A stretch of DNA of 61,186 nt, the filler included, from Basidiobolus ranarum (lineage: Eukaryota), in the NCBI GenBank assembly GCA_040143965.1. It is 20 parts of 20 records of this genome, joined end to end, with 100 filler letters (N's around TTAATTAATTAA, not from the genome) between each part and the next. Parts side by side here need not be neighbours in the genome. Positions count along the whole stretch, not along the records: positions 39,897 to 42,854 come from JASJQH010002828.1; 19 more parts are not named here. The stretch is one strand, 5' to 3'. The notes below the pieces were generated by a model, which worked only from the letters and a program-made list of their open reading frames with translations, had not been told where the DNA came from and ran no database searches. Positions within the stretch are counted from its first letter, which is position 1; each line of letters starts with the position of its first letter. Below, piece by piece: positions 2,981 to 60,510 of the stretch. Both the position numbers and the translations under genes were made by a program.

Positions 2981-3080
2981 NNNNNNNNNNNNNNNNNNNN
3001 NNNNNNNNNNNNNNNNNNNNNNNNTTAATTAATTAANNNNNNNNNNNNNNNNNNNNNNNNNNNNNNNNNNNNNNNNNNNN
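2981..3080. other. Artificial scaffold spacer (N44-TTAATTAATTAA-N44), first of 19
   Basis: Identical 100-nt spacer with stops in all six frames, starting at 2981, 6060, 9137, 12212, 15285, 18355, 21423, 24488, 27553, 30617, 33678, 36738, 39797, 42855, 45912, 48968, 52024, 55080 and 58134. Intervening lengths fall from 2980 to 2953 bp. Confidence 0.98.
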
Positions 3081-3208
3081 GTTAGTTTTCTGTATTTCCA
3101 CCAAAAAGTATAAGTGCTTTATTTCTGGACAATAAACAATTATCTCACAAAGCTACTCACAACTCCACTTTTCTAAAGTTCCTCCAAACAGCCCATATTT
3201 TCCCAATA
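3081..3208 (+). mobile_element. Short Ty1/copia LTR (5' end cut by scaffold edge)
   Basis: Near-identical to 51855-51983, which is followed by a copia-type PBS. Confidence 0.7.
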
Positions 3209-3209
3209 A

Positions 3210-3669
3210 TACCAAGTCAAGACTGGACAAGGAAGATACTTAGGCAAGAATCTTTATTGATAAATGGCATTGATCAGACCTCAGTCTGATCAAGGAATAC
3301 ATGGGGCTTATAAAAGTATTGCAGGGTGAAACATAATATACTGAATATGCCATATACTGTGGCAAGTTAAAGTGTTGGGGTGTTGGGAACTACAGCAACC
3401 AATACAAAGAGGGTTGATGTAAGGATTATGTAAGGGCAAGCAGGTGACCTTCCATGGAAGGTCTTGGCGGAAATACACTTTGTGTGAGATGACATGAGTG
3501 GTTAGGTTTCATGGAATGTTCCAAAGAACATGACTCCCATATAAGGTAACCTGGATGAACTAATTCAAGATTGCCAAGAAGGGATGGCACAGCAGATATG
3601 ATGTCATAATCTAATAATAGAAGAGTTCTATTTGCAGTGGATTTGTGTGCCAAGATCAGAATCATGACA
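3210..3669 (-). mobile_element. Ty3/gypsy LTR remnant
   Basis: Reverse complement of the LTR at 37646-38514; starts TGTCATGA on the minus strand at 3669. Confidence 0.8.
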
Positions 3670-5165: not shown

Positions 5166-5429
5166 ATGGAATTTCTTGGTGGTCTAAACTCCCAGAGTCC
5201 ATTTTAGTTTCTCCTACTGAGTCCATTGGTTATGATTCACACCATATTTTGGCAACACTGTTGAAAGTGAAGATATTGCAGAGTTTTATGAGTCATATAT
5301 CCCAAATGATGTAGGTTCAAGTGCAAGTTTGGTCAAGCCTGTAAGTCCAGAAAGCTGTAAGGAATTGCTGCTTATAGCTGATCATAGTTATCCTTGTGCC
5401 AAGGGCAGTTTATCAGAACAAGATCAAGT

Positions 5430-6059
5430 CAAAGATGATGGTTTTGTTATAGTATTTTTGTTTTTGGCTGGCAGTAGTTCACTCTTAACATTGACAGTCA
5501 AGGAAGTAGCTTGTATAATGAAAGAGTGAAGAGTTGAATCTAATCTTAGCAACCAGGCATTTACTGGTTTCCTTACATGTCCATCATAGTTATTTGGCAA
5601 CTGTTGCTGGCAACAGACCTTGTACAAGTGCAAGAATGCGTGTCAAGCATATGGGTGGTAATCCTTCAGTAATCAAAGTATCTTCATGTACAAATGGTTG
5701 TTTGGCTTACACTGGTGAACAAATATGCCTGAAGTTATGTACTATTTGCACACAATTGGCAAGCACTAAATCAGGTAAATATCACTCATGTTAGGCATGC
5801 ATGCTTTTGACACCTTGTCTCAAGTATTAATGAAATCATACTAATATACATCCTTGATCTGGTACCAGAGTACCCACTATAGCAGATAGTTTTACCAATA
5901 CGTTTAATAGATATCACTATCAGAATCTAAAAAGTCCAGGTTTAAGTAGTATTGGAGTGTTGTTGAATAGTAAGTGCATGGTGCCTAATGGGAAGCTCTG
6001 GCTCCAGCTGATCCCCTTTAGCAATATAATCTTAGGCTTATGGCTAATACCAAGTTTGA
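5430..6059 (+). mobile_element. CACTA/En-Spm transposase remnant
   Basis: SCTNGCLAYTG..CTICTQLA motif, homologous to 27911-28396 (-) and 60699-61040 (+). Confidence 0.65.
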
Positions 6060-6639: not shown

Positions 6640-9136
6640 TGTTGAAATTAGGCAAATAGCAACTCATTAGTTAGTAGTAAGTTTATTCAAATTCTGATTA
6701 TTTAGCATTTAATTCTACCATTCAAAGTTGTGTGTTTATTGCTTGAATTGATAGAACTATGAATTGGATCACTTTTACCAATTTTCACTATTTTCTCAAA
6801 ACTTCTCCAAATCATCTCAAATTTTCACCCATGCTTAACAGGCATATTTGTTATAATCTAAGCGTGTCCATATATCCTGTTTCAAAATAAACTACACATA
6901 GGATATAATCAATTCAATAAAACTTAAGTGTCTAGTTCACAAATCTGAATCTTGTCCAAAACACTTCTAAATCCTCTAAGCACCTTTATCAGGATATGAG
7001 CCCCAAGCTAGCCACTAAAGAAATGTCTACCAACACTATAATCAATGTTTTGCTTACATAGCAAAGTTTGACGGTGAAGACTTTCACCTCTGGTAGTTCA
7101 AGATGCAAATGGTGCTAGAAGACAACAATCTGTGGGGATTTGTCATTGGAAAAGAAATAGAGCCAAAGGGACCACCAGAAGCTATCCTTACCTTTGAGAA
7201 AAAGCATAGGAAAGCACTCTCTACACTTTGTATACACCTCAGAAACTCTCAATTGAGGCACATGCACTCATCCAAAAACAACCAGACTACTTGGGAAATA
7301 CTTGAAGGACTATACAAAACTAAAAGTTCAGCTAAATGGCTATATCTTTGGCAAAAATTGCTCTCAATTCAGATGAATTCTGGTTAGTATATGGCTAAAT
7401 ATATAAATCAGATAAAAACTATGGCAGACTAGCTCTCATCCATTGGAGCTCCTCTGAGTAAAGATAATTTAGTCATGACACTACTTGGGAGCCCGCCAGG
7501 CAAGTTTGGTATTCTCATAACTGCCTTAGAATCAAAATTTCATCCATTAAGAGTGGAATATGTTGGTGCTAGGCTTTTGAATGATGTATTCAGGAGATCT
7601 TGATCTCAGCAAAATAATTCATATTAGTCATTTTTGGAGCTATAAATCATCAAACTGGCTGCAATAATAGTGCCCCTGATAGGAAACCAATTATATGCAT
7701 ATATTGCAAGAGACCAGGCCATTTAATCAAAGTTTGCAGAAGAAGGATTTTTGCCAAAAAGCTAAAATTGGAGCAAGCTAATCAAGCACTGATAGGGATC
7801 ATCTGTTTGTTTCTGCCCTTCAGCAACCACTAAATTAGACTCAGATGCATGATATAATTGTTCAGGAGCTTCCCAGCATATATCATACATGAAAGAATGG
7901 TTGAGCAGCTTGAAACCCATCCAAGCAAGCAAAGTCTACTTAGATGAAGACTAAGCACTAGAAGCAGTTGGTAAAGGCACAATTATGCTCAAATTAGATC
8001 AAAATATGGCTACACCATCTGCATAATGGATGATGTACTCTAAGTACCACATGTAACCAAGAATCTGCTCTCAGAAAGCCTAGCAACCACTCAAGGTACT
8101 TTCTGACCTTTATTGATGACAAAATAAGATATACTCTGGTATTCTTTCTCCAATGATAATCTGAAACATTAGCTATGTTCAAGCACTCCAAAGGTAGAGA
8201 ATGAATCAGCACAAAAAAGTAGGGTACTAGAGAGTCATAATAGTGGAGAATATTGCTCTAAAGACTTTGCTAGTTCTTTTTCTAAACAAGAAATTGTGCA
8301 ACAACATACTATACCATGTACTCCACAGCAAAATGGTGTTGAGGAATGTGCTAACAGGACCATAGTGGTGATGGCCAGATCAATGTTACAGGATCACAGT
8401 TAGATTAACAACATTGAGCTATATCTGTCTCCACTGCAGTCTGTATCAAGAAACAGAGGTCTAAAGAGATTGCTAAAACTTCTACTCCATTTGAAACCCT
8501 ATATGAATCAAATCAAGTGTGTATTATCTCAGCATCTTTGGTTGCATAGCTTGTTGCATAATTCCAGCTCCAAAATGTTCTAAATTGGAACCCAAAAGCA
8601 GAAAATGTATATATTTTGGTTGCTGTGATGGATCTAAGGCCTATAGACTGCTGGTTACCAATTATCAGAAGTTAATTAAGTGCAGAGATTTGATTTTTGA
8701 TTCAAAAGGAAGTTTTTTACCGCAAATCACAGTTTTTAATGAAGAAAAACAATTGGCACCAGTCAGTGAGTGTCTAAATTCCAGCTGTATCTGTTCCCAA
8801 TTCAACCAAAATTCCAGCTTCAATTACAGCACAGGATGAATCCAGACCTAGCAGTTTATCAAGAAGAAGGCATAAGCTTTGGAACTGGTGGAACACTCTT
8901 AATGATAGTGTCTATGCTTACACAGCATTCTTCAATGAGCCACAGACTCTGGATGAAGCTCTAGAGTGTACAGAAGCAAAATTATGGGAAACAGCAAAGT
9001 CTGGCAAGCTTCTGTCACTTCAGGACAATAAAGAATGGGTCATAAGTCATATACCACCAGGAATAAAGGCAATAGGCTCCTTATGAGTCTGCAAAGTTAA
9101 AGACTGAGCTGATGGAACCATAGAAAGATACAAAGC
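6640..9136 (+). mobile_element. Decayed Ty1/copia retrotransposon: 5' LTR 6640-6991, PBS 6992-7004, gag-protease-integrase-RT start
   Basis: LTR TGTTGAAA...TTTATCA matches 18865-19199; PBS GGATATGAGCCCC; gag MVLEDNNLWGFVIG; zinc knuckle near 7695; integrase TPQQNGV and SKLEPKSRKCI; RT ADGTIERYK. Stops and frameshifts throughout. Confidence 0.9.
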
Positions 9137-12311: not shown

Positions 12312-12908
12312 ACCGCGCTCGTACTCGTTATCATACTCATCTTGTTCATATTGACGGCCATAACGAGAGCGAGGATAGTTCTGCTGACCATTTCTGCGAG
12401 ACACACCACGTTCGTACTCGTTATCATACTCATCTTGCTCGTATTGACGGCCATAACGAGAGCGAGGATAGTTCTGTTGACCATTTCTGCGAGAGACACC
12501 ACGTTCGTACTCGTTGTTATACTCATCTTGCTCGTATTGACGGCCATAACGAGAGCGAGGATAGTTTTGTTGACCATTTCTGCGGGAGATACCACGTTCG
12601 TACTCGTTATCATACTCATCTTGCTCGTATTGACGGCCATAACGAGAGCGAGGATAGTTTTGTTGACCATTTCTGCGGGAGATACCACGTTCGTATTCGT
12701 TATCGTACTCGTCTTGTTCATATTGACGACCATAACGAGAGCGAGGATAGTTTTGTTGACCATTTCTGCGGGAGATACCACGTTCGTACTCGTTATCATA
12801 CTCATCATGCTCGTACTGACGACCATAGCGAGAGTTGTTTTGCTGATCACTTCTGCGAGTCAAACCTCTCTCGAAGCGGCTTTGTGATTGATGTTGTTTA
12901 GAGGGCAT
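12312..12908 (-). CDS. Tandem-repeat protein with 30-aa unit RG(I/V)SRRNGQQNYPRSRYGRQYEQDEYDNEYE, 3' truncated
   Basis: 90-nt unit repeated more than five times. Differences between units are mostly synonymous in this frame (CAA/CAG, TAC/TAT, GAG/GAA, TCC/TCT). ATG at 12908. Confidence 0.75.
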
Positions 12909-18454: not shown

Positions 18455-19199
18455 GGTAATGGAGCCATAACTTGGAATAGTAAGAAGCAACCAACCGTAG
18501 CACTTTCCACTACAGAAGCAGAGTATATGGCTGCCTCTGCTACTACACAAGAAGCTATGAGGTTAAGGAAGTTATTTACAGACTTAGGATACATGCAAAA
18601 ATGTGCTATTACTATTTTTGAAGATAATCAAAGTTGTATTTCATCAGCTAAAAACCCTACATTTCATGCTACAACAAAACATATAGATATTATGCATCAT
18701 TTTGTTAGAGAAGCAACAGAGAATGATATAATTGAACTTGTCTATTGCCCTACTGAAGAAATGATAGCAGATATCCTAACCAAACCCTCAGCTAAAGCAC
18801 AATTTAAACTATTAAGATATAAGTTAGGTTTAAGGGAAATACAAAGTCATATGTTGAGTGGGAATGTTGAAATTAGGTAAACAGCAACTCACTATTTAGT
18901 AGTTAATTTAATCATATTCTGATTATTTAGTGCCAAATTCTGTCATTTGAAAACATGTGTTTATTGCTCTAATTGATGGATATATCAATTAGATCACTTT
19001 TTCCAATTTTCACTATTCACTCAAATCTTCTCCAAATCACCTCAAATTTTCACCCATGATTAACAGGCATGTTTTTTATGATCTAAGCATGCCCAATAGT
19101 CCTATTTCACAGTAAACTATAAATAGGACATATTAAATTCTAATTCACAAATCCAAATCTTGTTGAAAACACTTCCAAATCCCCTAAACACTTTTATCA
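18455..19199 (+). mobile_element. Ty1/copia 3' end: RNase H, PPT and 3' LTR (18865-19199)
   Basis: SKKQPTVALSTTEAEYMA..EDNQSCI..TKHIDIMHHFVRE..MIADILTKP; PPT GAGTGGGAA 18856-18864; LTR of the same family as 6640-6991. Confidence 0.92.
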
Positions 19200-39896: not shown

Positions 39897-42854
39897 AGAG
39901 CAATTTTTTGCTGTTTACAGACCATATCAGGATGTGTTGGGTCAATAAATCCATCTGGTTGCTCCATATAGATCTCTTATTCTAGATTTCCATTCAGAGA
40001 GGCTGTTTTTACATCCATATGATGTAGATCAGGTTATGGAGGGCTGAGAGTGCCAGGATTGATCTAATGGAGCTAAACCTAGCTACTGGAGCAAAAGCTT
40101 CATTTAAAGCAACTCCTGGGGTCTGGGAATAACCTTTTGGAACTAATCTTGCTTTGTACCTTTCTATGGTTCCATCAGCTTGGTTTCTGACTTTGTAGAC
40201 CCATTTGCAACATATTAGCTTTCTCCCTGATGGAAGCGGACTTAAAAACCATGTTTTATTGTCCTGAAGTGAAGAAAACTCATCTGACATTGCTTTTTCC
40301 CATAATTTTGATTCTGGACACTCCATAGCTTGATCTAGAGTCTGTGTCTTGTCACAGAATGCTGCATAAGTATATACATTATCATTGGAAGTGTTCCACC
40401 AGTTTCATGGCTTATATCTCCTTTTGGATGATCTTCTGGGTCCTGAATCATCATTTGATGTAATTGGGACTAAAATTTTGGTTGAACAGGGCTCAGATAC
40501 AGCTGGAAATTTGTCGGACACTTCCTGAATAGTTTTGATTGTGTTTTCTGGATCAACTACTATGATTTGAGGTGAAAAATATGCTTTTTCATCAAGAATC
40601 ACATCTCTGCACTTAATTAACTTCTGATTTTCAGTATTAAACAGTCTGTAGGCCTTGGATCCATCACAGTAACCATGAAATATGCATTTTCTGCTTTTGG
40701 GTTCCAATATTGAGTGTTTTTGAGCAGGAATCAGGCAATATGCTGAGCAACCAAAGATCCTGAGAAGAGCCACACTTGGTTTTATCAATATAGGGCTTCA
40801 AACAGAGTAGAATTTTTTGGCAATCTTGTTGTGCATCTATTTTGATATAGACTGCAGTGGAGACAGATTCAGCCTAATATTGGTAATCTAACTTTTGATC
40901 ATGTAATATTGATCTTGCCATCTCCACTATGGACCTATCAGCACATTCTGCAACTCCATTTTGCTGTGGAGTATAAGGTACAGTAGTTTGTTGCTTAATT
41001 CCATGTTTAGAGCAAAAACTAGTAAAGTCTTTAGAGCAGTATTCTGCACCATTATCCCTCCTTGGTACCCTTATTTTTTGTGCTGATTCTTTCTCTACCA
41101 CTGGTTTTTAGTGCTTGAATGTAGCTAGGGCTTCAGCTTTTGATTTGAGAAAGAATACTGAAGTATATCTTGTTTGTCATCAATAAAGGTCATAAGTACC
41201 TTTTCCCACCCAGTGAGAAGCTTTTCAAAGGCCCACATAGATCAGAATGAATCAGGGAAACATTCTGAGTGGATTTGATCTCTCCAGAGCTTGAAAATGG
41301 CTGTATGTGATGTTTTCCATATATGCAACCTTCACACAGATCCAATTCAGTGATACTTGCAATTTCCAAGCCTGAAAAAAGCTGATTTTGTATCTTTTGA
41401 GTCAGTTTTTGTTCCCCAATACGGCCTGATTTTCTATGCCATGTTTGACAACTTATTTCACCAGTTGTGGCCAAGTTTGCATGCTCAGATTGCAATTTGT
41501 TGATTTCAAGCTTGTATAAGTTTTGAGTTTTGATTGCAGTAGCTAATTTGGTAATGTTCTGATCTGTGATAGTGCATCCAGCATTACTGAACACAAAGTT
41601 TAATCCTTGATTTGTTGCTTGGCTTACTGAGAGTAGATTCTTGGCTATATTTGGAACATTGAGTACATCATCTGATTTTGCAGATGGTGTAGCTGAACTG
41701 TGGTCTAAATTGAGTACAACTGTGCCATTACCAACTGTATCTAGTACAAGTCATCACCCAAGTAGACTTTCCTTATTTGGATTGGGTTTAAGCTGGAAAA
41801 CCAATCTTTCCTGTTTGACATATGCTGCAAAGCTCCGGAATCAATGTACCACATTTCTGAGTCTTCTTTAGTGGTTACTGATGGGCCAGGCACAAATAGA
41901 TGATATCTATCAGTGCTTACTTCATTTGCTTGTTCCCATTTTAGCTTTTTGGCAAAAATCCTTTTTCTGCAACTTTGATTAAATGGCCTGGTTTCATGCA
42001 ATATTTGCAGATGATTAATATCCTAATAGGGGCACCATTATTGAAGCCTGTTGGATGTTTCACTGCTCCAAAAAATGCCTCTTCTGCATTATTTTGCTGA
42101 GAATTAGATCTCCTTAATTCTTCACTCAAAAGCCTAGCACAAACATATTTCATTGGTAATGGCTCTGAGCTTGATTCTAGGGCATTTATGAGGTTCCCAA
42201 ACTTGTCTGGCAGTTTCCCAAGTAGTGTCATGACTAAGTCATCTTCATTTAGAGGTTCTCCATTGGATGAGAGCTGATCTGCCAAAATTCTTTTCCAATT
42301 AATATAATTAAGCATAGAATGATCAGGATTCATCTGAATTGAGGACAATTTTCACCTAAGATATTGCCTATTAGCAAGACTTTTAGTCTCACATAGTCTC
42401 TCAAGTGTTTCCCAAGCATTTTGGATGTTTTTGGCTGATTGTATGTGCCTCAATTGAGAATCTCTAACAAGTAGACAAAGTGTAGAGAGTGCTTTCCTCT
42501 GCTTCTTGTGAAAGGCACAGATAGCTTCTGGTGGTCCCTTTGGCTCTATTTCTTCTCCTGTAATAAATCCCCAAAGGTCCTTGTCTTCTAGCACCATTTT
42601 CATCTTGAACTGACAAAGATGAGAGTTATCACCATCAAATTTCTCTGTGGATGCAAAAACATTAGTAATAGTACTGGAAGACATTCCTTTAATAGCTAGC
42701 TTGGGGCTCATTGACCTATTGAAATTATTTAGGGAGAAATATTGGTCTGGCCAGGATTTGAACCTGGGACCTCCTTCACTCTGGCAAGGTGCTCTAACCA
42801 CTGAGCTACCAGTGCTTGTATGCTATGCCTGTAATGCTAGAGAACCTTAACCTA
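39897..42854 (-). mobile_element. Decayed Ty1/copia element: partial 5' LTR (42717-42854), PBS (about 42703-42716), gag-PR-IN-RT
   Basis: Gag MKMVLEDKDLWGFITG, CKYCMKPGH knuckle, WYIDSGA protease, LIHSDLCGP, PYTPQQNGVAE, RT CKWVYKV..YKARLVPKGYSQ, all in copia order. Confidence 0.93.
42743..42815 (-). other. tRNA-like 73-nt cloverleaf with A and B boxes inside the copia LTR
   Basis: GCACTGG TA GCTC AGTGGTTA GAGC A CCTTG CCAGAGT GAAGG AGGTC CCAGG TTCAAAT CCTGG CCAGACC A. D stem 4/4, T stem 5/5, anticodon stem 4/5, acceptor stem 5/7; U33 is missing. Confidence 0.85.
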
Positions 42855-42954
42855 NNNNNNNNNNNNNNNNNNNNNNNNNNNNNNNNNNNNNNNNNNNNTT
42901 AATTAATTAANNNNNNNNNNNNNNNNNNNNNNNNNNNNNNNNNNNNNNNNNNNN

Positions 42955-44559: not shown

Positions 44560-45911
44560 TAATTAGCTTTCCAGAAATCAGATAATGTTTGATCATTTTG
44601 CCATAATTAGCAAATCTAAAATGGCCACACCTGATATAACATAATTAAATGGTTTCTTCGTTTGAATTACTTATTGTTACATTTAAACTTCTTGCATTGT
44701 ATGTAAGTATGTATTAGTTCTATTTTGTTTCTCCCAAAGCTAAGAAAATCCCATTGGATTACTAATAGTGCATCCTGACCAATTAGAATTAAACTTGAGC
44801 ACTTTCAAGATGGTCATGCATACATATTTTGAATTCTTGGTACAGTTTGGAATATGTAGTACAACCTTCAAAGTTTACTGTCTGTCTTCATAAGCATTAG
44901 TTCAATTGACTTGCTTTGTTCCCATTCTAACAGCATCAAATGCATGGTTATGTTGTATGAAAACCATTCTAGTGATGATTATTCTTAACTGATAAACCAA
45001 CATTTTTCATATGTAACTTGGTAGGAGTCTCCAAAATTAATGTTGCATCTCTGCAAATCCTTACTGGTAGTTCTAGCTGGAGCAGTTATGAACCAGTGAT
45101 CATCTGTCTCCACTGCATTTCCAGATTCAGTATATTTTTCCTCTTGGTGATTTTTTCCAAGCAATCTTTGCTTAAAGTGCTCTTGCTTTCACAGAAATAA
45201 CAGAATGTGTTACTTTTCTTTTCAAAGTTCTTTTGATCTCTATAGGAAGGTTCCCCATGGCCTATGATAGCATTTTCTTCATTCTTTTAGTTGGATCCTC
45301 ATTGGCATAAATCTTCATCCAGACATCTGCCATATACATAATTTAAGGTCAAATTTTCAGTTCTTTATTCCAAAGCCTTTGCTAGGCTCTGAGACTTGGG
45401 TGGCAGACTATTCAGGACTGTGACTATGATATCTTGATCAGTGATAGGCACTCCAATGCATTCCATTTCATCCACTAAAATAGTGACTCTATTAATTAGT
45501 GATTTGAGGTCTTCTCCTGGCTGCATCTTGAAGTTAAAGAATTGTCTTGTTATAAACATCTTGTTGGCAGCAAAACTTGTTTAGTAGGTGTCTTCCAAGA
45601 CTTTACATACCTTCTTGACAGTTTTAGCTCTTGAACATTGAATTAGTAATTTGTCTTTAACATTAAGACAAGTTGTGTTAAAGACACTTTGCTCTTGTTT
45701 GACTTGGAGTAAATTTTTGGTTTCAGATAGTTTTGCACTGTTTGCTTCACCTAGAGTAGTGTCCCAAAGTCCTTTTTCTTGCAGCAGCATTTTCATTTTA
45801 ATTTTCCAAACTTGATAATTGGTTCTATCCAATCTTTCAGAAGTGGGAAAAGTTCCATAAATAAGAGAAGTGGACATTACAGAATGTGCCCGCTTGGGGC
45901 TCACCACCTGT
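44560..45911 (-). mobile_element. Decayed Ty1/copia gag-protease with PBS remnant
   Basis: ERLDRTNYQVWKIKMKMLLQEKGLWD; minus-strand ACA-GGTGGTGAGCCCC at the scaffold edge. Confidence 0.8.
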
Positions 45912-51854: not shown

Positions 51855-51996
51855 TGTTAGTTTTCTGTATTTCCACCAAAAAGTATAAATGCTTTATTTC
51901 TGGACAATAAATAATTATCTCACAAAGCTATTCACAACTCCACTTTTCTAAAGTTCCTCCAAACAGCCCATATTTTCCCAATAGGTTATGAGCCCC
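51855..51996 (+). mobile_element. Short (129-bp) copia 5' LTR plus PBS GGTTATGAGCCCC
   Basis: TGTTAG...CCCAATA (51855-51983) followed directly by a Ty5/copia-type PBS; second copy of the LTR at 3081-3208. Confidence 0.8.
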
Positions 51997-52123
51997 ATGT
52001 TCTAACCTTTACAGCATGACAGANNNNNNNNNNNNNNNNNNNNNNNNNNNNNNNNNNNNNNNNNNNNTTAATTAATTAANNNNNNNNNNNNNNNNNNNNN
52101 NNNNNNNNNNNNNNNNNNNNNNN

Positions 52124-53445
52124 AATGACGGAGACTTGCGCTGGTTGTATATATAACAAACAGTTTCCATTCAGTGATACTGGGAAGGAATTTGGTACGT
52201 TAGGGCATCCTTCCAGCGAAGTATGTTTGCGAATCGTCGATGATGATGATCAAATATTGCCAGCTGGCTCATGCGGGAATCTGCAAATATCGTGCCCTCA
52301 GCTATTCAAGGGCTATTATAACAATCCTGAGGCTAATGAACAAGCCTTCACTAAGGATGGCTGGTTCAGAACAGGGGATACAGCTAATCTTGCCAATGGG
52401 GCCCTGGAACTTGTTGGAAGAACCAAGGATAGTATTATTCTTCGTGGTGTCAACTATTACGGCAATGAACTCGAGGCTGCATTACAAAATATAGAAGGGA
52501 TTGTCCCTTCATTCGTCGCAGTTTGCCCTATTCGGCCAAAGGGCTCTCAAACCGAACAAGTTGCCGTTTTCTATCTTCCTTCATTTTCTCTATCTGATGA
52601 AGAAGCTCTTCTTCGTACTCATTCCAGTATTCAACAAAAACTGATTCAGTTTTGCTCTCAAGCACCTCACGTAATATTGCCACTCTCCAAAAACATCTTG
52701 ACTAAAAATTCATTGGGCAAGTTATCAAGAGGGAAACTACGTCAACGATATGAAAAAGGGGAATTTGATGAATTCTTGAAGATTGTTGAGCAAATTGTCC
52801 AAACAAGAAAGGCTTTGAAATATAAGAAGCCAACCTCCGATACTGAAATCGCTCTGGCTTCCTTCTTGTGTAAGATATTTGATGTACCTTCAGATGATAT
52901 GTGTGTAGAAGAGAACTTCTTCAGTATGGGAGGCTCGTCTCTAGAAGTCGTACAGTAAGTGTATTTTGTTTAACCGATGATTTTATGCATTTATTAAGTA
53001 GATTTCTATTGTATAGATACAAAGCGAGAATTATTGAACACTTCAATCTAGCCAAGGTAAGTTGAGAGTTGTACTACGGAATAGCCATGACTTTTGTACT
53101 AATCCATATTTTCCATTACAGAATTGGCCAGTCATCAGAATTATGCAACATCCAACTATTCGAGCACTTGCAACACATTTGGATGAATCCAAATCAAATG
53201 CCACTGGAGGTGCACTTGCAACACATTTAGATGAATCCAAGGTGAAGGCCACAACATGTTTTCGGACTAGCGTTATAGGATGGTTGCATGTTTTTGGACT
53301 AGCATTACAGGAGAATTACGTGTTTTTGAGCTGGGTTACCGGATATGCATTCCAGGATAATTTCACATTATCAAGCTGCCTTACAGGTCAATACTATGCT
53401 TACAAGTTGCACTATGGGACAATTACATGTTTACAAGCTGCGTAG
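52124..53445 (+). CDS. NRPS-like adenylation-thiolation enzyme of the alpha-keto-acid-dimerising (AtrA/TdiA/MelA-like) type; 5' truncated, TE domain absent (possible pseudogene)
   Basis: MTETCAGCIYN, GYYNNPEAN..DGWFRTGD, GRTKDSII, VFYLP, KNSLGKLSR, carrier motif FFSMGGSSL. Introns 52955-53016 and 53057-53121 complete the T domain (..HPTIRALA); the frame then ends at 53445 in unrelated sequence. Confidence 0.82.
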
Positions 53446-54133: not shown

Positions 54134-55057
54134 CTAATAATCAACTAAATATTGACTGAAATATTGTCCAAGCTTTTGAGTCACTGGGTCAACATACTTG
54201 AGGACATCGTAAAGATCGACATGTGATGCTCCAGAGACGAGGAAAAGTTCTTTAGGTTCTTTGGCTTTCTGAATAGCCTTTTCACTCAAATACTTGGTAT
54301 CAGCGTCGGTTCCAGCAATCAGCAAGATTGGACGAGGTGCAATCAAGTGCACAAAGTTGAATGCTGAGAATTGTACCAACTTATCCATGCTTCTGAAAAC
54401 ATACGCATTTGTACTGTTGGGGTGTTGAGCACGAGGGGTGCGATAGTAATCGTATGCCTCTCTGTAGAGACTACGAGGTGGCAATGCTTCTGCATCTGCA
54501 GCAGTCTTTGGAACCCAATTACTCAGGTAAGGCTGCTCACCTCTTGCCTCTCTTGTTCGTTGTCTTGCGCACTCTTGTAAGCCTTTTTGTAAATCTTCGA
54601 ACGAAAGGCTACCATTCATGCCCTCTCTCCATAACTCGCCAGTGTCTGCGGAACTGATTCCGGCTACAGCCTTAATGCGTACATCAGTTTGGGCCGCACA
54701 GGTAGCGTATCCTCCTGCAGCACAAATACCTAGAACACCAATCCTCTCTGGATCAACTTCTTTCAAGGTTGTGAGATAGGAGACGGCACTTTTGAAGTCC
54801 TCTACTCTCTGGGCGGGGTCCTCCAGATATCTTGGAAGACCTTCACTTTCACCTTGGTAAGCAGCATCAAAAGCTAAAGTAATAAACCCAAGGTTACATA
54901 ATTTCTCAGCGTAAAGACCAGCGGTCTGCTCCTTAACACCTCCACCAGGATGGCCAATGACAATAGTAGCGTGCTTTTTAGGTTGAGTATTTTCAGGAAG
55001 ATAAAGGTTTCCGGCAAGCTTGATACCTTGGCTTTGGAAAGTTACTTTGCTTGGCAT
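54134..55057 (-). CDS. Alpha/beta hydrolase, YcjY-like (bacterial-type), intronless
   Basis: GHPGGGVKEQTAGLYA, FDAAYQGESEGLPR..EDP..RVED, nucleophile elbow GICAAGG, IAPRPILLIAG, GASHVDLYD. Confidence 0.9.
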   Translation of the reverse strand: MPSKVTFQSQGIKLAGNLYLPENTQPKKHATIVIGHPGGGVKEQTAGLYAEKLCNLGFITLAFDAAYQGESEGLPRYLEDPAQRVEDFKSAVSYLTTLKEVDPERIGVLGICAAGGYATCAAQTDVRIKAVAGISSADTGELWREGMNGSLSFEDLQKGLQECARQRTREARGEQPYLSNWVPKTAADAEALPPRSLYREAYDYYRTPRAQHPNSTNAYVFRSMDKLVQFSAFNFVHLIAPRPILLIAGTDADTKYLSEKAIQKAKEPKELFLVSGASHVDLYDVLKYVDPVTQKLGQYFSQYLVDY

Positions 55058-58233: not shown

Positions 58234-60510
58234 CCTGAAGTGATGTACTGTTTGCACACAATTGGCAATCACCCAATAAGGCAAATTTTGTTCATATTTG
58301 GCTTACATGCTGTTGATTCCCCATCTTAAAGTTTTTATGAAATCACCCAAATACAGATCATGGATCCAATACCAAAGTACTCACCATTAAGCTGATGGTA
58401 TTACCAATATACTTGATGGATATCACTACCAGAATCTTAAAAGTCAAGGTTTCTTTGAAAATATGTATGATCATGCATTTTCATTGGCTCTGGATGGTTT
58501 CTTACTAAACAAACATATCATTGGAGAGGCTTGCTGGCCAATAATTTTAATTAACTTAAATCTTCCTCCTTCTGAATGGTTTAAGAGTCGTAATATTTTG
58601 ATACTATCCATCATATTTGAACCTAAATCACCAGTACTTATAGATAGCTTCTTGCAGCCTTTGATTGCAGAATTTGAATGGTTATCTAATGGGGTTCAGA
58701 TGGGTGAATATTTCTTTAAGGCTAATATTGATGTATGTATTGGTGACACTTCTGTCATCAGTATACTTGAAGGTTTTTGTGGGCACAATGCACTATCTTG
58801 CTGAGGATATTGTCAAATCATTAGAGTTTACTATATCCAGCATGCACATTACTATTATCCAAATACAAGACTAAACTCCATGATATTACTGTCAAGGGCC
58901 TTGTCAGATTTCAGCATGCTCAATGATATCAATTCACCAAATAGTCAGTCTAACATCAGACTTGGTATTAGCTGTAGCCTAAGATTATATTGCTAAGGGG
59001 ATCAGCTGAAGCCTGAGCTTCCAATTAGGCACTATGCACTTACTATACAACAACATTCCAATGCTACTTACTCAGCCATATAGTGGAATATTCTATATGA
59101 ATGAGCCATTCAAGATAGGAGCAAAGTTTGAATTAATTGGCAAAATGCTTGCAAATGTCAAGATACCACCATATTTTACCAGGACTCCCACGAATATCCA
59201 CTCATCTAAGCTTTTGTGCAAATGCAAAGACTGGAAGTATTTGCTTTGTATATGTTCAAGCAGAATCTTCAAAATATTTCTGCCTGATAAGTGCTGCAAC
59301 CTTGGGAGTTGTTTGTGTATATTGTTAATATATTCTTACAGCATTAACTCACATTGGCAGATCTCAGGCAGATACAGCCACTGTGAGAAGATTCTGTAAT
59401 TAGATATGAAAAACTTTATTTCAGGTTTAAGGAAGATAGATTGAATCTATGCCAGCATTTAATACATTCCCTGCTGCATCTTTCACAATGCATAGAGATT
59501 ATAGGCCCTTGCTAAACATTGTGGGAGTTCCTAATGGAGTGCACCTGTGGTGAAATAAATGCTCCATATAAACTTTCAGTATCACCACATACTAATTCAA
59601 TTAACAATGTGCCAGCAAAATCTGTGATGGATGTAATGCAATGGGTTAAGGAGACTACAGAGTACATTAGCCTTACAACAAAGGGCTCTTTTCAATGAGC
59701 TCATGAGTTTTTGCAGTGTTTGAGCATAATAATGGCAACAAAGCCCAATCCATGGATACCGTGTAAATACCTCTATAATTTTGACTAATTTGTTTGTGTA
59801 ATAATCTGATGGTATTGCTAGGAAAGCTGCAAGACAGACTTCTTGATGAGATAGATTAAGATATACAGTATTATTGTTTTAGCCATGGGGTAATCTATTC
59901 AAGCAATGACACATCAACTTGTGACAGGACATTTGTTGACTGCAAGTTGGGGATATTTTGGCTAAGTTCCATACCAAAACTTGCCAAAATCCAAGAGCTT
60001 ACTCTTGTTGGGAATGGTAGCAAGAGTAAGCTACTTGCCAAGTGTCAGTGCTATTCAAAATTTAAATGGTTTAGCAGTTTTTCCACCATTAGTTTGCTGG
60101 TGAAGCATATTGATGTTGTTGAGTTATGTCTCATTAGTCAAATATGTGCATATGTAGAGACTAAACACAACAAGATTCTTGTATTTTTTTATTCTCATTA
60201 TGACTGGAACACCAAGTCTAAGATATATAAATATAGGCATGCATATTAATTTGAATTCCTATAGCTGTAAACCCAGTAATTTGCCATTTAAAAAATGAAT
60301 TTTTGCAAAAATTGTTGGAAATGTTTTTTTTAGGAGCGTGAAAATTTTAACATGAATGAACACCATTAAAATACAATCAAGAAGCCACCATATTACCATC
60401 AAAATCCTTTGCAGAATGCAATCCACCAAAATTGCGATGGTTCTTGGATGGTTTTGTAATCCTGAAGGGTGGATCCAATCTGGATCAAATTGACTTTATT
60501 GTTGTTAGGG
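58234..60510 (+). mobile_element. CACTA/En-Spm (Transposase_21/tnp2-type) pseudogene with right terminus
   Basis: LALDGF..CWPIILINLNLPPSE..IIFEPKSPVLIDSFLQPLIAEF..NGV; ends ...TTGTTAGGG at 60510, the inverse of the CCCTAACAA terminus. Confidence 0.85.

Follow-up and report, generated by a model that had tools for sequence, protein, structure and literature searches.

A 61,186-nucleotide stretch of Basidiobolus ranarum DNA (hereafter, the window) contains a decayed Ty1/copia retrotransposon with a tRNA-like sequence just upstream of its primer-binding site (PBS), and this locus raises the question of whether the tRNA-like sequence belongs to the long terminal repeat (LTR) of the element or was acquired by a single copy. 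The window consists of 20 unplaced contigs of ~3 kb with linkers of the form N44-TTAATTAATTAA-N44 between them; the linkers, 19 identical and regularly spaced, are artificial, non-genomic, and separate unrelated contigs. According to the linker map, the contig of interest is 2958 bp long (39897-42854, minus strand), is bordered by the linker at 42855-42954, and contains a truncated, decayed copia copy and 138 nt of DNA 5' of the PBS. The initial annotation had described it as a protein-coding element with a tRNA-like gene inside its LTR.

Along the minus strand, Pfam matches were obtained in the order PF14223, PF22936, PF13976, PF00665, PF25597, and PF07727. The gag gene (41944-42684) matches Retrotran_gag_2 (PF14223, E 8.9e-15 and 5.4e-14) and contains one in-frame stop. 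It is followed, at 39897-41943, by frameshifted pol remnants in copia order (Pol_BBD, gag_pre-integrs, rve, SH3_retrovirus, and the start of RVT_2), which end with the contig; the rve match (PF00665, 31.4 bits) lies slightly below the cut-off of 32.6. The PBS, GGTCAATGAGCCCCAAGC (42699-42716, minus strand), is complementary to the anticodon stem-loop of initiator tRNA-Met, as in Ty5 and Drosophila copia, and PBSs of this type have been described (PMC10886601, PMC5371799). A leader of 14 nt (42685-42698, minus strand) separates it from the gag ATG.

The PBS motif is common to four copia 5' ends in the window, at an equal distance from the gag ATG, and the 12-mer TGAGCCCCAAGC occurs exactly three times, each time 14 nt upstream of a gag ATG. 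One of these PBSs (45892-45908, minus strand) belongs to a third copia 5' end, whose contig starts 3 nt upstream of it; another, GGTTATGAGCCCCATGT (51984-52000, plus strand), belongs to a fourth element, whose LTR ends in ...CCCAATA at 51983. The LTR end of the fourth element recurs at 3081-3208 (97.7% over 128 nt), with unrelated sequence after it. Exact sequence common to our copy and other copies around the PBS and leader amounts to about 17 nt, and the PBS at 42699-42716 carries private changes (GGTCAATGAG). The PBS call is upheld by the recurrence of the motif, equally spaced from gag, at three other copia 5' ends. The assignment to Ty1/copia is upheld by the gag, integrase, and RT domains, which follow the gag-PR-INT-RT order of copia. 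The element is protein-coding in the sense that its domains are recognizable, but its frame is not intact, being broken by stops and frameshifts.

The tRNA-derived sequence occupies 73 nt at 42743-42815, on the minus strand, and thus has the orientation of gag-pol, as first annotated. ARAGORN called it as tRNA-Ser(aga), the sole gene that the program found in the window, and it is likewise the sole tRNA match in the window at E<=10 to Rfam model RF00005 (47.2 bits, above the gathering threshold of 29; E 5.5e-07 when the whole window is searched). Both internal promoter boxes could be read from the sequence: the A box, TAGCTCAGTGG, at 42798-42808, and the B box, GGTTCAAATCC, at 42754-42764, both on the minus strand, the latter being the window's only match at no more than one mismatch. 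A 73-nt minus-strand cloverleaf with intact A and B boxes, as claimed initially, is therefore present. Three of its stem pairs are non-standard in the Rfam alignment (two in the acceptor stem and one in the anticodon stem), position 33 is C, not U, and the Ser anticodon is accompanied by a short variable loop of 5 nt. Such a loop combined with a Ser anticodon does not match real tRNA-Ser. The minimum-energy fold of the region is not a cloverleaf (z -1.4), and there is no CpG in the 73 nt. Because of the stem pairs, C33, the isotype mismatch, and the minimum-energy fold, the sequence does not qualify as a functional tRNA gene. Judged from these features, the cloverleaf is tRNA-derived and decayed, and is no working tRNA.

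Within the 59.5 kb of contigs, which are mostly repeats, the tRNA-like segment was seen only once, and a search of viral contigs with a 27-nt stretch of the cloverleaf revealed no relative. A degenerate 23-nt pattern covering the anticodon and variable region matched one locus in metagenome contigs (L001); it lies inside a transporter-like ORF on a high-GC bacterial contig without a tRNA, and was rejected as a chance match. The gag protein has a close relative (P0001, 67%), which starts inside gag, and another at 41%; an exhaustive search gave 4987 matches at E<=0.001, of which 27 reached E<=1e-30. No translated tRNA-like sequence was seen in the N-terminal extensions of 28 among 150 listed gag matches, which were read by eye, a weak test. 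Viral contigs contained no relative of the gag protein or of a 10-sequence gag alignment.

The DNA between the cloverleaf and the PBS is 26 nt long (42717-42742, minus strand) and ends, on the PBS side, in ...TTTCAATA. Its terminal CAATA is the verified terminus of another LTR family in the window. The contig ends 39 nt upstream of the cloverleaf, its other end lying inside RT, and these 39 nt (42816-42854, minus strand) contain no visible LTR TG start. The 5' border of this upstream DNA, the 3' LTR of our copy, and any target-site duplication thus fall beyond the contig. The annotated placement of the cloverleaf 26 nt before the LTR 3' end and the PBS was thus borne out for the 26 nt and the PBS; the LTR itself is not visible. 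The CpG observed/expected ratio of the contig is 0.04, compared with 0.5-0.95 in gene contigs.

A control for the LTR question is provided by a sister copy within the same window (6992-9136, plus strand), which consists of a PBS, a leader, and decayed gag-pol of the same copia family, and is 79.7% identical to our copy over 2136 aligned columns (BLAST: 79.5% over 1109 and 78.0% over 1056). Its PBS and 14-nt leader are the same as in our copy. Differences between the two copies fall on codon positions 1, 2, and 3 in 118/586, 109/583, and 130/585 cases, respectively (0.201, 0.187, and 0.222 per site), and this near-even distribution indicates neutral decay from near-identical progenitors of one family. 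Upstream of the sister copy lie 352 bp bounded by TG...CA (6640-6991, plus strand), which match a second sequence at 18865-19199 (plus strand) at 78.8% over 353 nt. The latter is a 3' LTR, preceded by a copia pol C-terminus and a purine run, and the upstream 352 bp of the sister copy are therefore a true 5' LTR. The two align with each other over their full extent; there is no overlap between the contig of our copy and that of the 3' LTR, whose element may be a close or a more distant relative of our copy. Neither LTR contains a tRNA-like sequence by Rfam search even at lax thresholds, a result by which a decayed tRNA-like sequence hidden in the family LTRs was ruled out. From this sequence comparison, the ordinary LTR of the family is shown to be about 335-352 bp long, with TG...CA ends and no tRNA-like sequence, "ordinary" and "exceptional" here referring to a very small sample of three LTRs, two without the cloverleaf and one with it.

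The 138 nt 5' of the PBS in our copy were compared with these LTRs. The local alignment score was 21, with a null of 18.6 +/- 2.1, and in shuffle tests 7% to 92% of shuffled sequences, depending on the comparison, scored as high. For the 39 nt at 42816-42854, no significant similarity was observed, either to the family LTRs (scores equalled in 22% and 92% of shuffled sequences) or to the remaining contigs of the window. The last 18 nt before the PBS (42717-42734) resemble the LTR 3' end of the family, with 13/18 matches to the LTR at 18865-19199 and 10/18 to that of the sister copy by hand count, and an end-anchored alignment of the spacer gave p about 0.001 to 0.02 at 18 nt, these short-sequence statistics having been chosen after looking at the data. 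The alignment gained nothing beyond 18 nt, and similarity of the T-arm region to the family LTRs was rejected on this ground. The match counts, which fall below the ~80% expected for an orthologous LTR end, and the CAATA terminus both fit a different but related LTR end. The 13/18 agreement with one of the family LTRs would, however, be equally expected had the insertion occurred within an LTR of the family itself. On alignment, then, the DNA 5' of the PBS in our copy is shown to be unrelated to the ordinary family LTR, except perhaps for its last 18 nt, and the cloverleaf, not being part of that LTR, looks like a later addition to one copy.

The claim that the tRNA-like sequence is part of the LTR of the gag-pol element is thus not supported by the sister copy LTR and the homologous 3' LTR, which lack it and cannot be aligned to the 138 nt. 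The initial annotation had itself named LTR copies without the cloverleaf as the observation that would speak against it; two were found, which comes close to a refutation without amounting to one, as a sublineage with this alternative LTR at both ends may exist.

Transcription by Pol III from the cloverleaf would meet its first possible terminator in the run TTTTT at 42655-42659 (minus strand), 26-30 nt into gag, which is the first run of at least four T's downstream. The predicted transcript length of 161 nt agrees with the ~160 nt given in the initial annotation, and the predicted RNA has no special fold (z +0.45). Since the stop lies inside gag, such a transcript could not supply genomic RNA for an element of roughly 5 kb. 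Self-priming by pairing of the PBS with the cloverleaf was considered and rejected (longest match 5 nt; mean of shuffles 4.8).

Elements with tRNA-like LTRs have been described in fungi. Helenus, named in the initial annotation as a TRIM with such LTRs, is confirmed as one in the literature (PMC10886601): the Helenus TRIMs (TRIMp3; Kojima 2024) are non-autonomous elements of 311-1263 bp that have a pair of LTRs but lack an ORF, and reports of them from fungi are confined to Pucciniales and a few Agaricomycetes. Their PBS type is shared with Copia, being in most fungal families the tRNA-iMet anticodon loop, the type of the partner Copia, and a Helenus can share its 5' internal portion with a Copia (PMC10886601).

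The reading that we favor, with about even confidence, is that a decayed tRNA-derived cloverleaf lies here on DNA foreign to the copia family, which stands where the 5' LTR should be in one dead copy or a small sublineage. Most likely, the cloverleaf arrived with foreign repeat DNA, through a Helenus-like LTR swap or a nested insertion. The segment would have been brought in by a copy-specific event, whose likeliest route may be replacement of the 5' LTR by a different, Helenus-type LTR whose tRNA-like module is close to the 3' end, through strand transfer or recombination in the common PBS and leader. Second in likelihood would be that another repeat inserted itself roughly 18-26 nt before the end of the LTR. 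The segment would afterwards have decayed along with the element under repeat-directed CpG loss, the cloverleaf presumably being carried along rather than serving as a promoter for the element. The tRNA-like segment was found only once, and a Helenus-like LTR or TRIM in this genome is accordingly hypothetical. A plain SINE insertion, which would have its tRNA head at the 5' end, was considered unlikely: the 39 nt that precede the head differ from the family LTR, and the 26 nt between the head and the PBS include no tail. A candidate target-site duplication, 13-14 nt flanking the cloverleaf on both sides, was discarded, since its downstream copy lies in the PBS-ATG leader common to the sister copy.

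Alternatively, the element could represent an autonomous copia lineage carrying the tRNA-like module in both LTRs, swapped or remodelled, and using it as a Pol III promoter, a TFIIIC site, or an R/U5 RNA structure. We regard this as unlikely. The segment does end in an LTR-type CAATA directly on a genuine PBS, in the orientation of the element, and quite a few Repbase LTRs contain tRNA-like parts (PMC10886601), but the LTR of the sister copy and the matching 3' LTR are free of them, the segment is single in the repeat-rich window, and the predicted Pol III transcript would end inside gag. That both boxes are intact despite the decay of the element favors such a lineage; however, with ~10% decay per copy, the 22 box positions would, by simple arithmetic, remain intact by chance about 1 in 10 times, and their survival is therefore weak evidence of selection.

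Joining of the two parts during assembly is an explanation to which we assign a smaller probability still: the LTR of another element, for instance of a Helenus-like TRIM with an internal part derived from the copia leader, could have been fused to our copy through PBS and leader sequence present in both. In favor of this, the ~3-kb contigs are unplaced remainders of the assembly with breaks at repeats, one of them beginning 3 nt upstream of a PBS; the PBS and leader are common to several copies; and a Helenus may have an internal portion identical to the initial ~200 bp of that of a Copia (PMC10886601). Against such a chimera stand the shortness of the exact shared sequence (about 17 nt) and the private changes in the PBS. 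Least probable, in our estimate, is a decayed genuine tRNA gene or retro-copy in flanking DNA, brought beside the PBS by deletion of most of the 5' LTR or by a reverse transcriptase that left copia RNA for a tRNA as template. In several microbes, according to a review, copia and gypsy elements integrate close to tRNA genes, the 39 nt upstream resemble nothing else in the window, and, if 3 nt are assumed to be lost, the 3' end reads, speculatively, as a perfect acceptor strand followed by ACCA. This explanation, however, requires a deletion ending exactly 18-26 nt from the LTR end; moreover, the lack of CpG in the cloverleaf is repeat-like and unlike the gene contigs, and the Ser anticodon with a short variable loop is unlike real tRNA-Ser.

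If the segment is a real multi-copy LTR, the known range of small-RNA-derived LTRs (TRIMp3) would grow to include an early-diverging phylum of fungi, LTR exchange with autonomous copia partners at a common PBS would be shown, and there would be reason for caution about tRNA gene numbers in such genomes, inflated as they are by repeats; a one-off insertion or an artefact of assembly would be ordinary repeat debris. Either way, linker-joined unplaced contigs should not be treated as one continuous sequence, and another copy of the family within the same window can be used as a control. In a literature search of limited coverage, no report was found of SINEs or Helenus in Basidiobolus, nor of an autonomous element with a tRNA-like LTR.

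Among known systems, Ty5 and Drosophila copia resemble our copy in the PBS only, which in them, too, is the complement of the initiator tRNA-Met anticodon stem-loop abutting the LTR end, whereas their LTRs contain no tRNA-like sequence. Cassandra and Ajax have a small-RNA Pol III promoter inside the LTR, but its source is 5S rRNA and not tRNA, and they are non-autonomous elements of plants and nemerteans. SINEs derived from tRNA (SINE2) share with the cloverleaf a non-working tRNA head with A and B boxes; here, in contrast, there is no body or tail, only 26 nt before the PBS, the 39 nt upstream are not host LTR, as they would be after a simple insertion, and one copy was seen in 59.5 kb. Several features are shared with Helenus. 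The cloverleaf carries TAGCT...TGG as box A, fitting the Helenus LTR pattern TRGCY...YGG, and GGTTC as box B (PMC10886601), its tRNA-like sequence is non-functional with anticodon and isotype mismatched, the sequence ends on a PBS of the partner-Copia type (tRNA-iMet anticodon loop), and the host is a fungus. Unlike in Helenus, which is short and non-coding, the module is here joined to more than 2.8 kb of gag-pol, and one partial upstream region is visible, in a single copy and in Basidiobolus; in addition, Kojima argues that the autonomous partner of Helenus should not share a Pol III LTR (PMC10886601). We tentatively suggest, while holding it to be doubtful, that Basidiobolus (Zoopagomycota) has a Helenus-type LTR, with a tRNA-like sequence in R/U5, 26 nt from the end, and an initiator-tRNA anticodon-loop PBS, here joined to a full copia gag-pol. 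If so, no LTR of this kind would have been known from beyond the Dikarya before, Helenus-like elements would be physically tied to the copia responsible for their movement, and the contig would be either a recombinant of a TRIM with its autonomous partner or a remnant of a short-lived autonomous lineage with a Pol III-type LTR.

ARAGORN predicted a single gene in the whole window, a tRNA-like cloverleaf at 42743-42815 on the minus strand, and the Rfam tRNA model matched this segment (score 47.2 bits, gathering score 29; E 5.5e-07, whole window) and no other in the window even at E<=10. An A box (42798-42808, minus strand) and a B box (42754-42764, minus strand) could be read from the sequence; the cloverleaf with both boxes described in the initial annotation was borne out. 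We conclude that the predicted cloverleaf is no working tRNA, because Rfam flagged non-standard pairs (two in the acceptor and one in the anticodon stem), position 33 carries C, a Ser-type anticodon is combined with a variable loop of 5 nt, and the minimum-energy fold (z -1.4) is not a cloverleaf. The 3' end (42743-42750) reads CCAGACCA. Speculatively, restoring 3 nt supposed to be lost after CCAG would make this end perfectly complementary to the 5' acceptor strand, with ACCA following; this, if true, would be a mark of copying from a mature tRNA. Viral contigs scanned with gag and cloverleaf queries revealed no relative. The sole metagenome match to a 23-nt pattern (3309-3331 of metagenome contig L001) lies inside a long transporter-like ORF on a high-GC bacterial contig and was rejected as a chance match.

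The cloverleaf is located on the contig at 39897-42854, upstream of a decayed gag-pol element. Downstream of it on the minus strand are 26 nt ending in ...TTTCAATA, then GGTCAATGAGCCCCAAGC, then 14 nt, and then the gag ATG at 42684; no LTR is visible, since the contig stops at a linker 39 nt upstream of the cloverleaf. Pfam matches on the minus strand run in the order gag (PF14223), Pol_BBD, gag_pre-integrs, rve (31.4 bits, slightly below the cut-off of 32.6), SH3_retrovirus, and the beginning of RVT_2, which is the order of Ty1/copia. Stops and frameshifts interrupt the frame, the contig end falls inside RT, and CpG observed/expected (o/e) is 0.04; the tRNA-like segment contains 0 CpG, in line with the rest of the dead element. 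Close relatives of its gag are rare in protein collections (one at 67%, P0001, and one at 41%), and P0001 begins inside gag and is therefore uninformative on the upstream region.

The 61,186 bases comprise 20 contigs of 2953-2980 bp each, ordered by length rather than as continuous genome, with 19 identical artificial linkers between them (44 N, TTAATTAATTAA, and 44 N; e.g., 2981-3080 and 42855-42954). Linker-crossing features are artefacts, and adjacent contigs are unrelated. CpG o/e is bimodal across the contigs: 11 rich in repeats lie at 0.02-0.13, eight, mostly gene-bearing, at 0.50-0.95, and one at 0.29. The pattern is indicative of CpG loss directed at repeats, whether through methylation or a RIP-like process, and is in keeping with the earlier remark that this genome appears to methylate its repeats.

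Several features were observed on other contigs. A dienelactone-hydrolase-like ORF at 54137-55054, intact and without introns, shares 91% identity with a Basidiobolus ranarum protein and 84% with a B. meristosporus protein, which makes a Basidiobolus species the most likely source of the window; outside Basidiobolus and Mucoromycota, the best among the matches listed are actinobacterial proteins with 54-58% identity (figures from the best 120 of the 7430 candidates, out of 8000 scored, at E<=0.001). The same contig carries the end of an AMP-binding (adenylation) domain (52125-52955), and a bacterial-origin gene cluster comprising the two is possible. A tandem repeat at 12312-12834 (93-bp unit, 5.6 copies, 93% match) has several open frames on both strands. 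Two paralogous ORFs in tandem on one contig (31531-32271 and 33049-33677; 88% identical over 794 nt) both have a signal-peptide-like start and an Arg/Gly-rich tail. A repeat family is present on four contigs (58391-58801, with related copies at 27653-28197, 5205-5943, and 60511-61054), and one of its ORFs matches Transposase_21 (tnp2 family; E 3e-11).

The primer-binding site (PBS) 12-mer, TGAGCCCCAAGC, has exactly three sites in the window, 42699-42710 (minus strand), 6997-7008 (plus strand), and 45892-45903 (minus strand), against a chance expectation of ~0.007 by our arithmetic, and a two-mismatch version is found at 51989; with up to two mismatches allowed, there were 7 matches versus 3.0 +/- 1.7 in shuffles. 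All four sites are 14-15 nt upstream of an ATG, which opens a copia gag at three of them; at the remaining one the contig ends 8 nt further on. One PBS is common to four copia-type 5' ends (6992-7008, 42699-42716, 45892-45908, and 51984-52000) with at least three different LTR types. Its least mutated version, GGTTATGAGCCCC, reads as the complement of the initiator tRNA-Met anticodon stem-loop. An oligonucleotide with the same 12 letters appears in the primer table of a yeast Met-tRNAi paper, where the entry states no purpose (PMC11230868). Ty5 is described as priming from the initiator tRNA-Met anticodon loop (PMC5371799), and Kojima gives the anticodon-loop PBS as the dominant type in fungal Helenus (a TRIM group with tRNA-like LTRs) and rust Copia families (PMC10886601). 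Because the PBS is shared by four 5' ends and is of this known type, the LTR/PBS boundary proposed at 42717/42716 is well placed.

A sister copy of the element (6992-9136, plus strand), on the contig at 6160-9136, is 79.7% identical to it over 2136 columns from the PBS onward (BLAST: 79.5% over 1109 and 78.0% over 1056). Counted by codon position, the differences are near-even (118/586, 109/583, and 130/585; a further 79/386 fall outside the frames used), and stops abound in both copies; the two are therefore one family, having decayed neutrally from near-identical progenitors. Between them, transitions only slightly outnumber transversions (225:211), so CpG decay explains only part of the divergence. 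Upstream of the sister PBS are 352 bp (6640-6991, LTR2) that start with TGTTG and end with TATCA. This sequence recurs, 78.8% identical over 353 nt, in the contig at 18455-21422 (LTR18, 18865-19199, plus strand), after a copia polyprotein C-terminus (55% identical to residues 1217-1343 of the 1351-residue collection protein P0002) and with a purine run before the repeat. We conclude that the 352-bp repeat is the family LTR, present once as a 5' LTR and once as a 3' LTR that have diverged at about the neutral rate. Nothing tRNA-like was found in LTR2 or LTR18, including with Rfam at E<=10 on the 371-nt stretches alone. The claim of a tRNA-like gene inside the element's own LTR is thus unsupported, the LTR of the one sister copy in the window and the matching 3' LTR both being without one.

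Local alignment of the 138 nt upstream of the PBS in question with the sister's upstream region scored 21 (null 18.6 +/- 2.1). Softer scoring against both family LTRs revealed nothing significant for the upstream 39 nt, the downstream 26 nt, both joined, or all 138 (fraction of shuffles scoring as high or higher, 0.07 to 0.92). When alignment was anchored at the LTR end, with real window segments as the null, similarity was confined to the last 18 nt (p 0.0007 for LTR18 and 0.019 for LTR2), and widening it past 18 nt brought no gain beyond the null's. By hand count, 13 of these 18 nt match LTR18 and 10 match LTR2, which is above chance and below the ~80% expected for an orthologous LTR end. 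The terminus is CAATA, versus TATCA in the family LTR; another LTR family of the window ends in CAATA (...CCCAATA), both beside a PBS (51983) and beside an unrelated flank (3208), 97.7% identical over 128 nt. On these comparisons, we conclude that the cloverleaf is outside the ordinary LTR of its copia family, and that the segment bearing it is foreign to that LTR, with its near edge either within 18 nt of the PBS or directly against it.

At one time the A and B boxes could have served to recruit TFIIIC and Pol III. The Pol III transcript of about 160 nt proposed earlier comes to 161 nt, as set by the first run of at least four T's (TTTTT, 42655-42659). A transcript stopping there, 26-30 nt into gag, could not be the element's genomic RNA. 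A primer role for the cloverleaf was rejected: its longest match to the PBS is 5 nt (null mean 4.8), complementarity as in the null. The fold of the 161-nt RNA is unremarkable (z +0.45), and both boxes would remain intact after ~10% decay by chance about 1 time in 10 (our arithmetic). Because a transcript would end in gag, there is no primer role, the fold is ordinary, CpG is lost, and the intact boxes may be due to chance, we read the tRNA-like segment as a passenger, now inert.

Explanations of its origin were weighed on a very small sample, two LTRs without the module and one with it. We give about an even chance to copy-specific acquisition of the segment by one copia copy. In the route we prefer, an LTR of a different type, with a tRNA-like module near its 3' end, would have taken the place of the 5' LTR through plus-strand transfer or through recombination where PBS and leader are shared. 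Such replacement would account for the foreign segment stopping at the PBS, the LTR-like terminus, and the kept orientation, and it has a precedent in Helenus, which Kojima describes as sharing the PBS and 5' internal sequence, but not the LTR, with Copia (PMC10886601). Acquisition might also have occurred by nested insertion ~18-26 nt from the LTR end. A simple insertion of a SINE is unlikely: the tRNA head is preceded by 39 nt that do not belong to the family LTR, and a body and tail would not fit.

We consider doubtful the reading of the initial annotation, a lineage carrying the tRNA-like LTR at both ends; LTR2 and LTR18 are without the module. An assembly chimera would have formed via the shared PBS and leader, and is more improbable still. 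Least likely, in our view, is that flanking DNA supplied the segment, as a decayed tRNA gene or a retro-copy of a tRNA.

In the literature searched, neither SINEs nor Helenus were reported from Basidiobolus, nor was an autonomous element with a tRNA-like LTR; Kojima does note tRNA-like parts in quite a number of Repbase LTRs (PMC10886601). The closest known system to this copia 5' end with its tRNA-like segment is the Helenus LTR, in which a tRNA-derived Pol III module adjoins an iMet anticodon-loop PBS, also in a fungus. Helenus, however, has two such LTRs and is short and non-coding, whereas the element described here is neither short nor non-coding.
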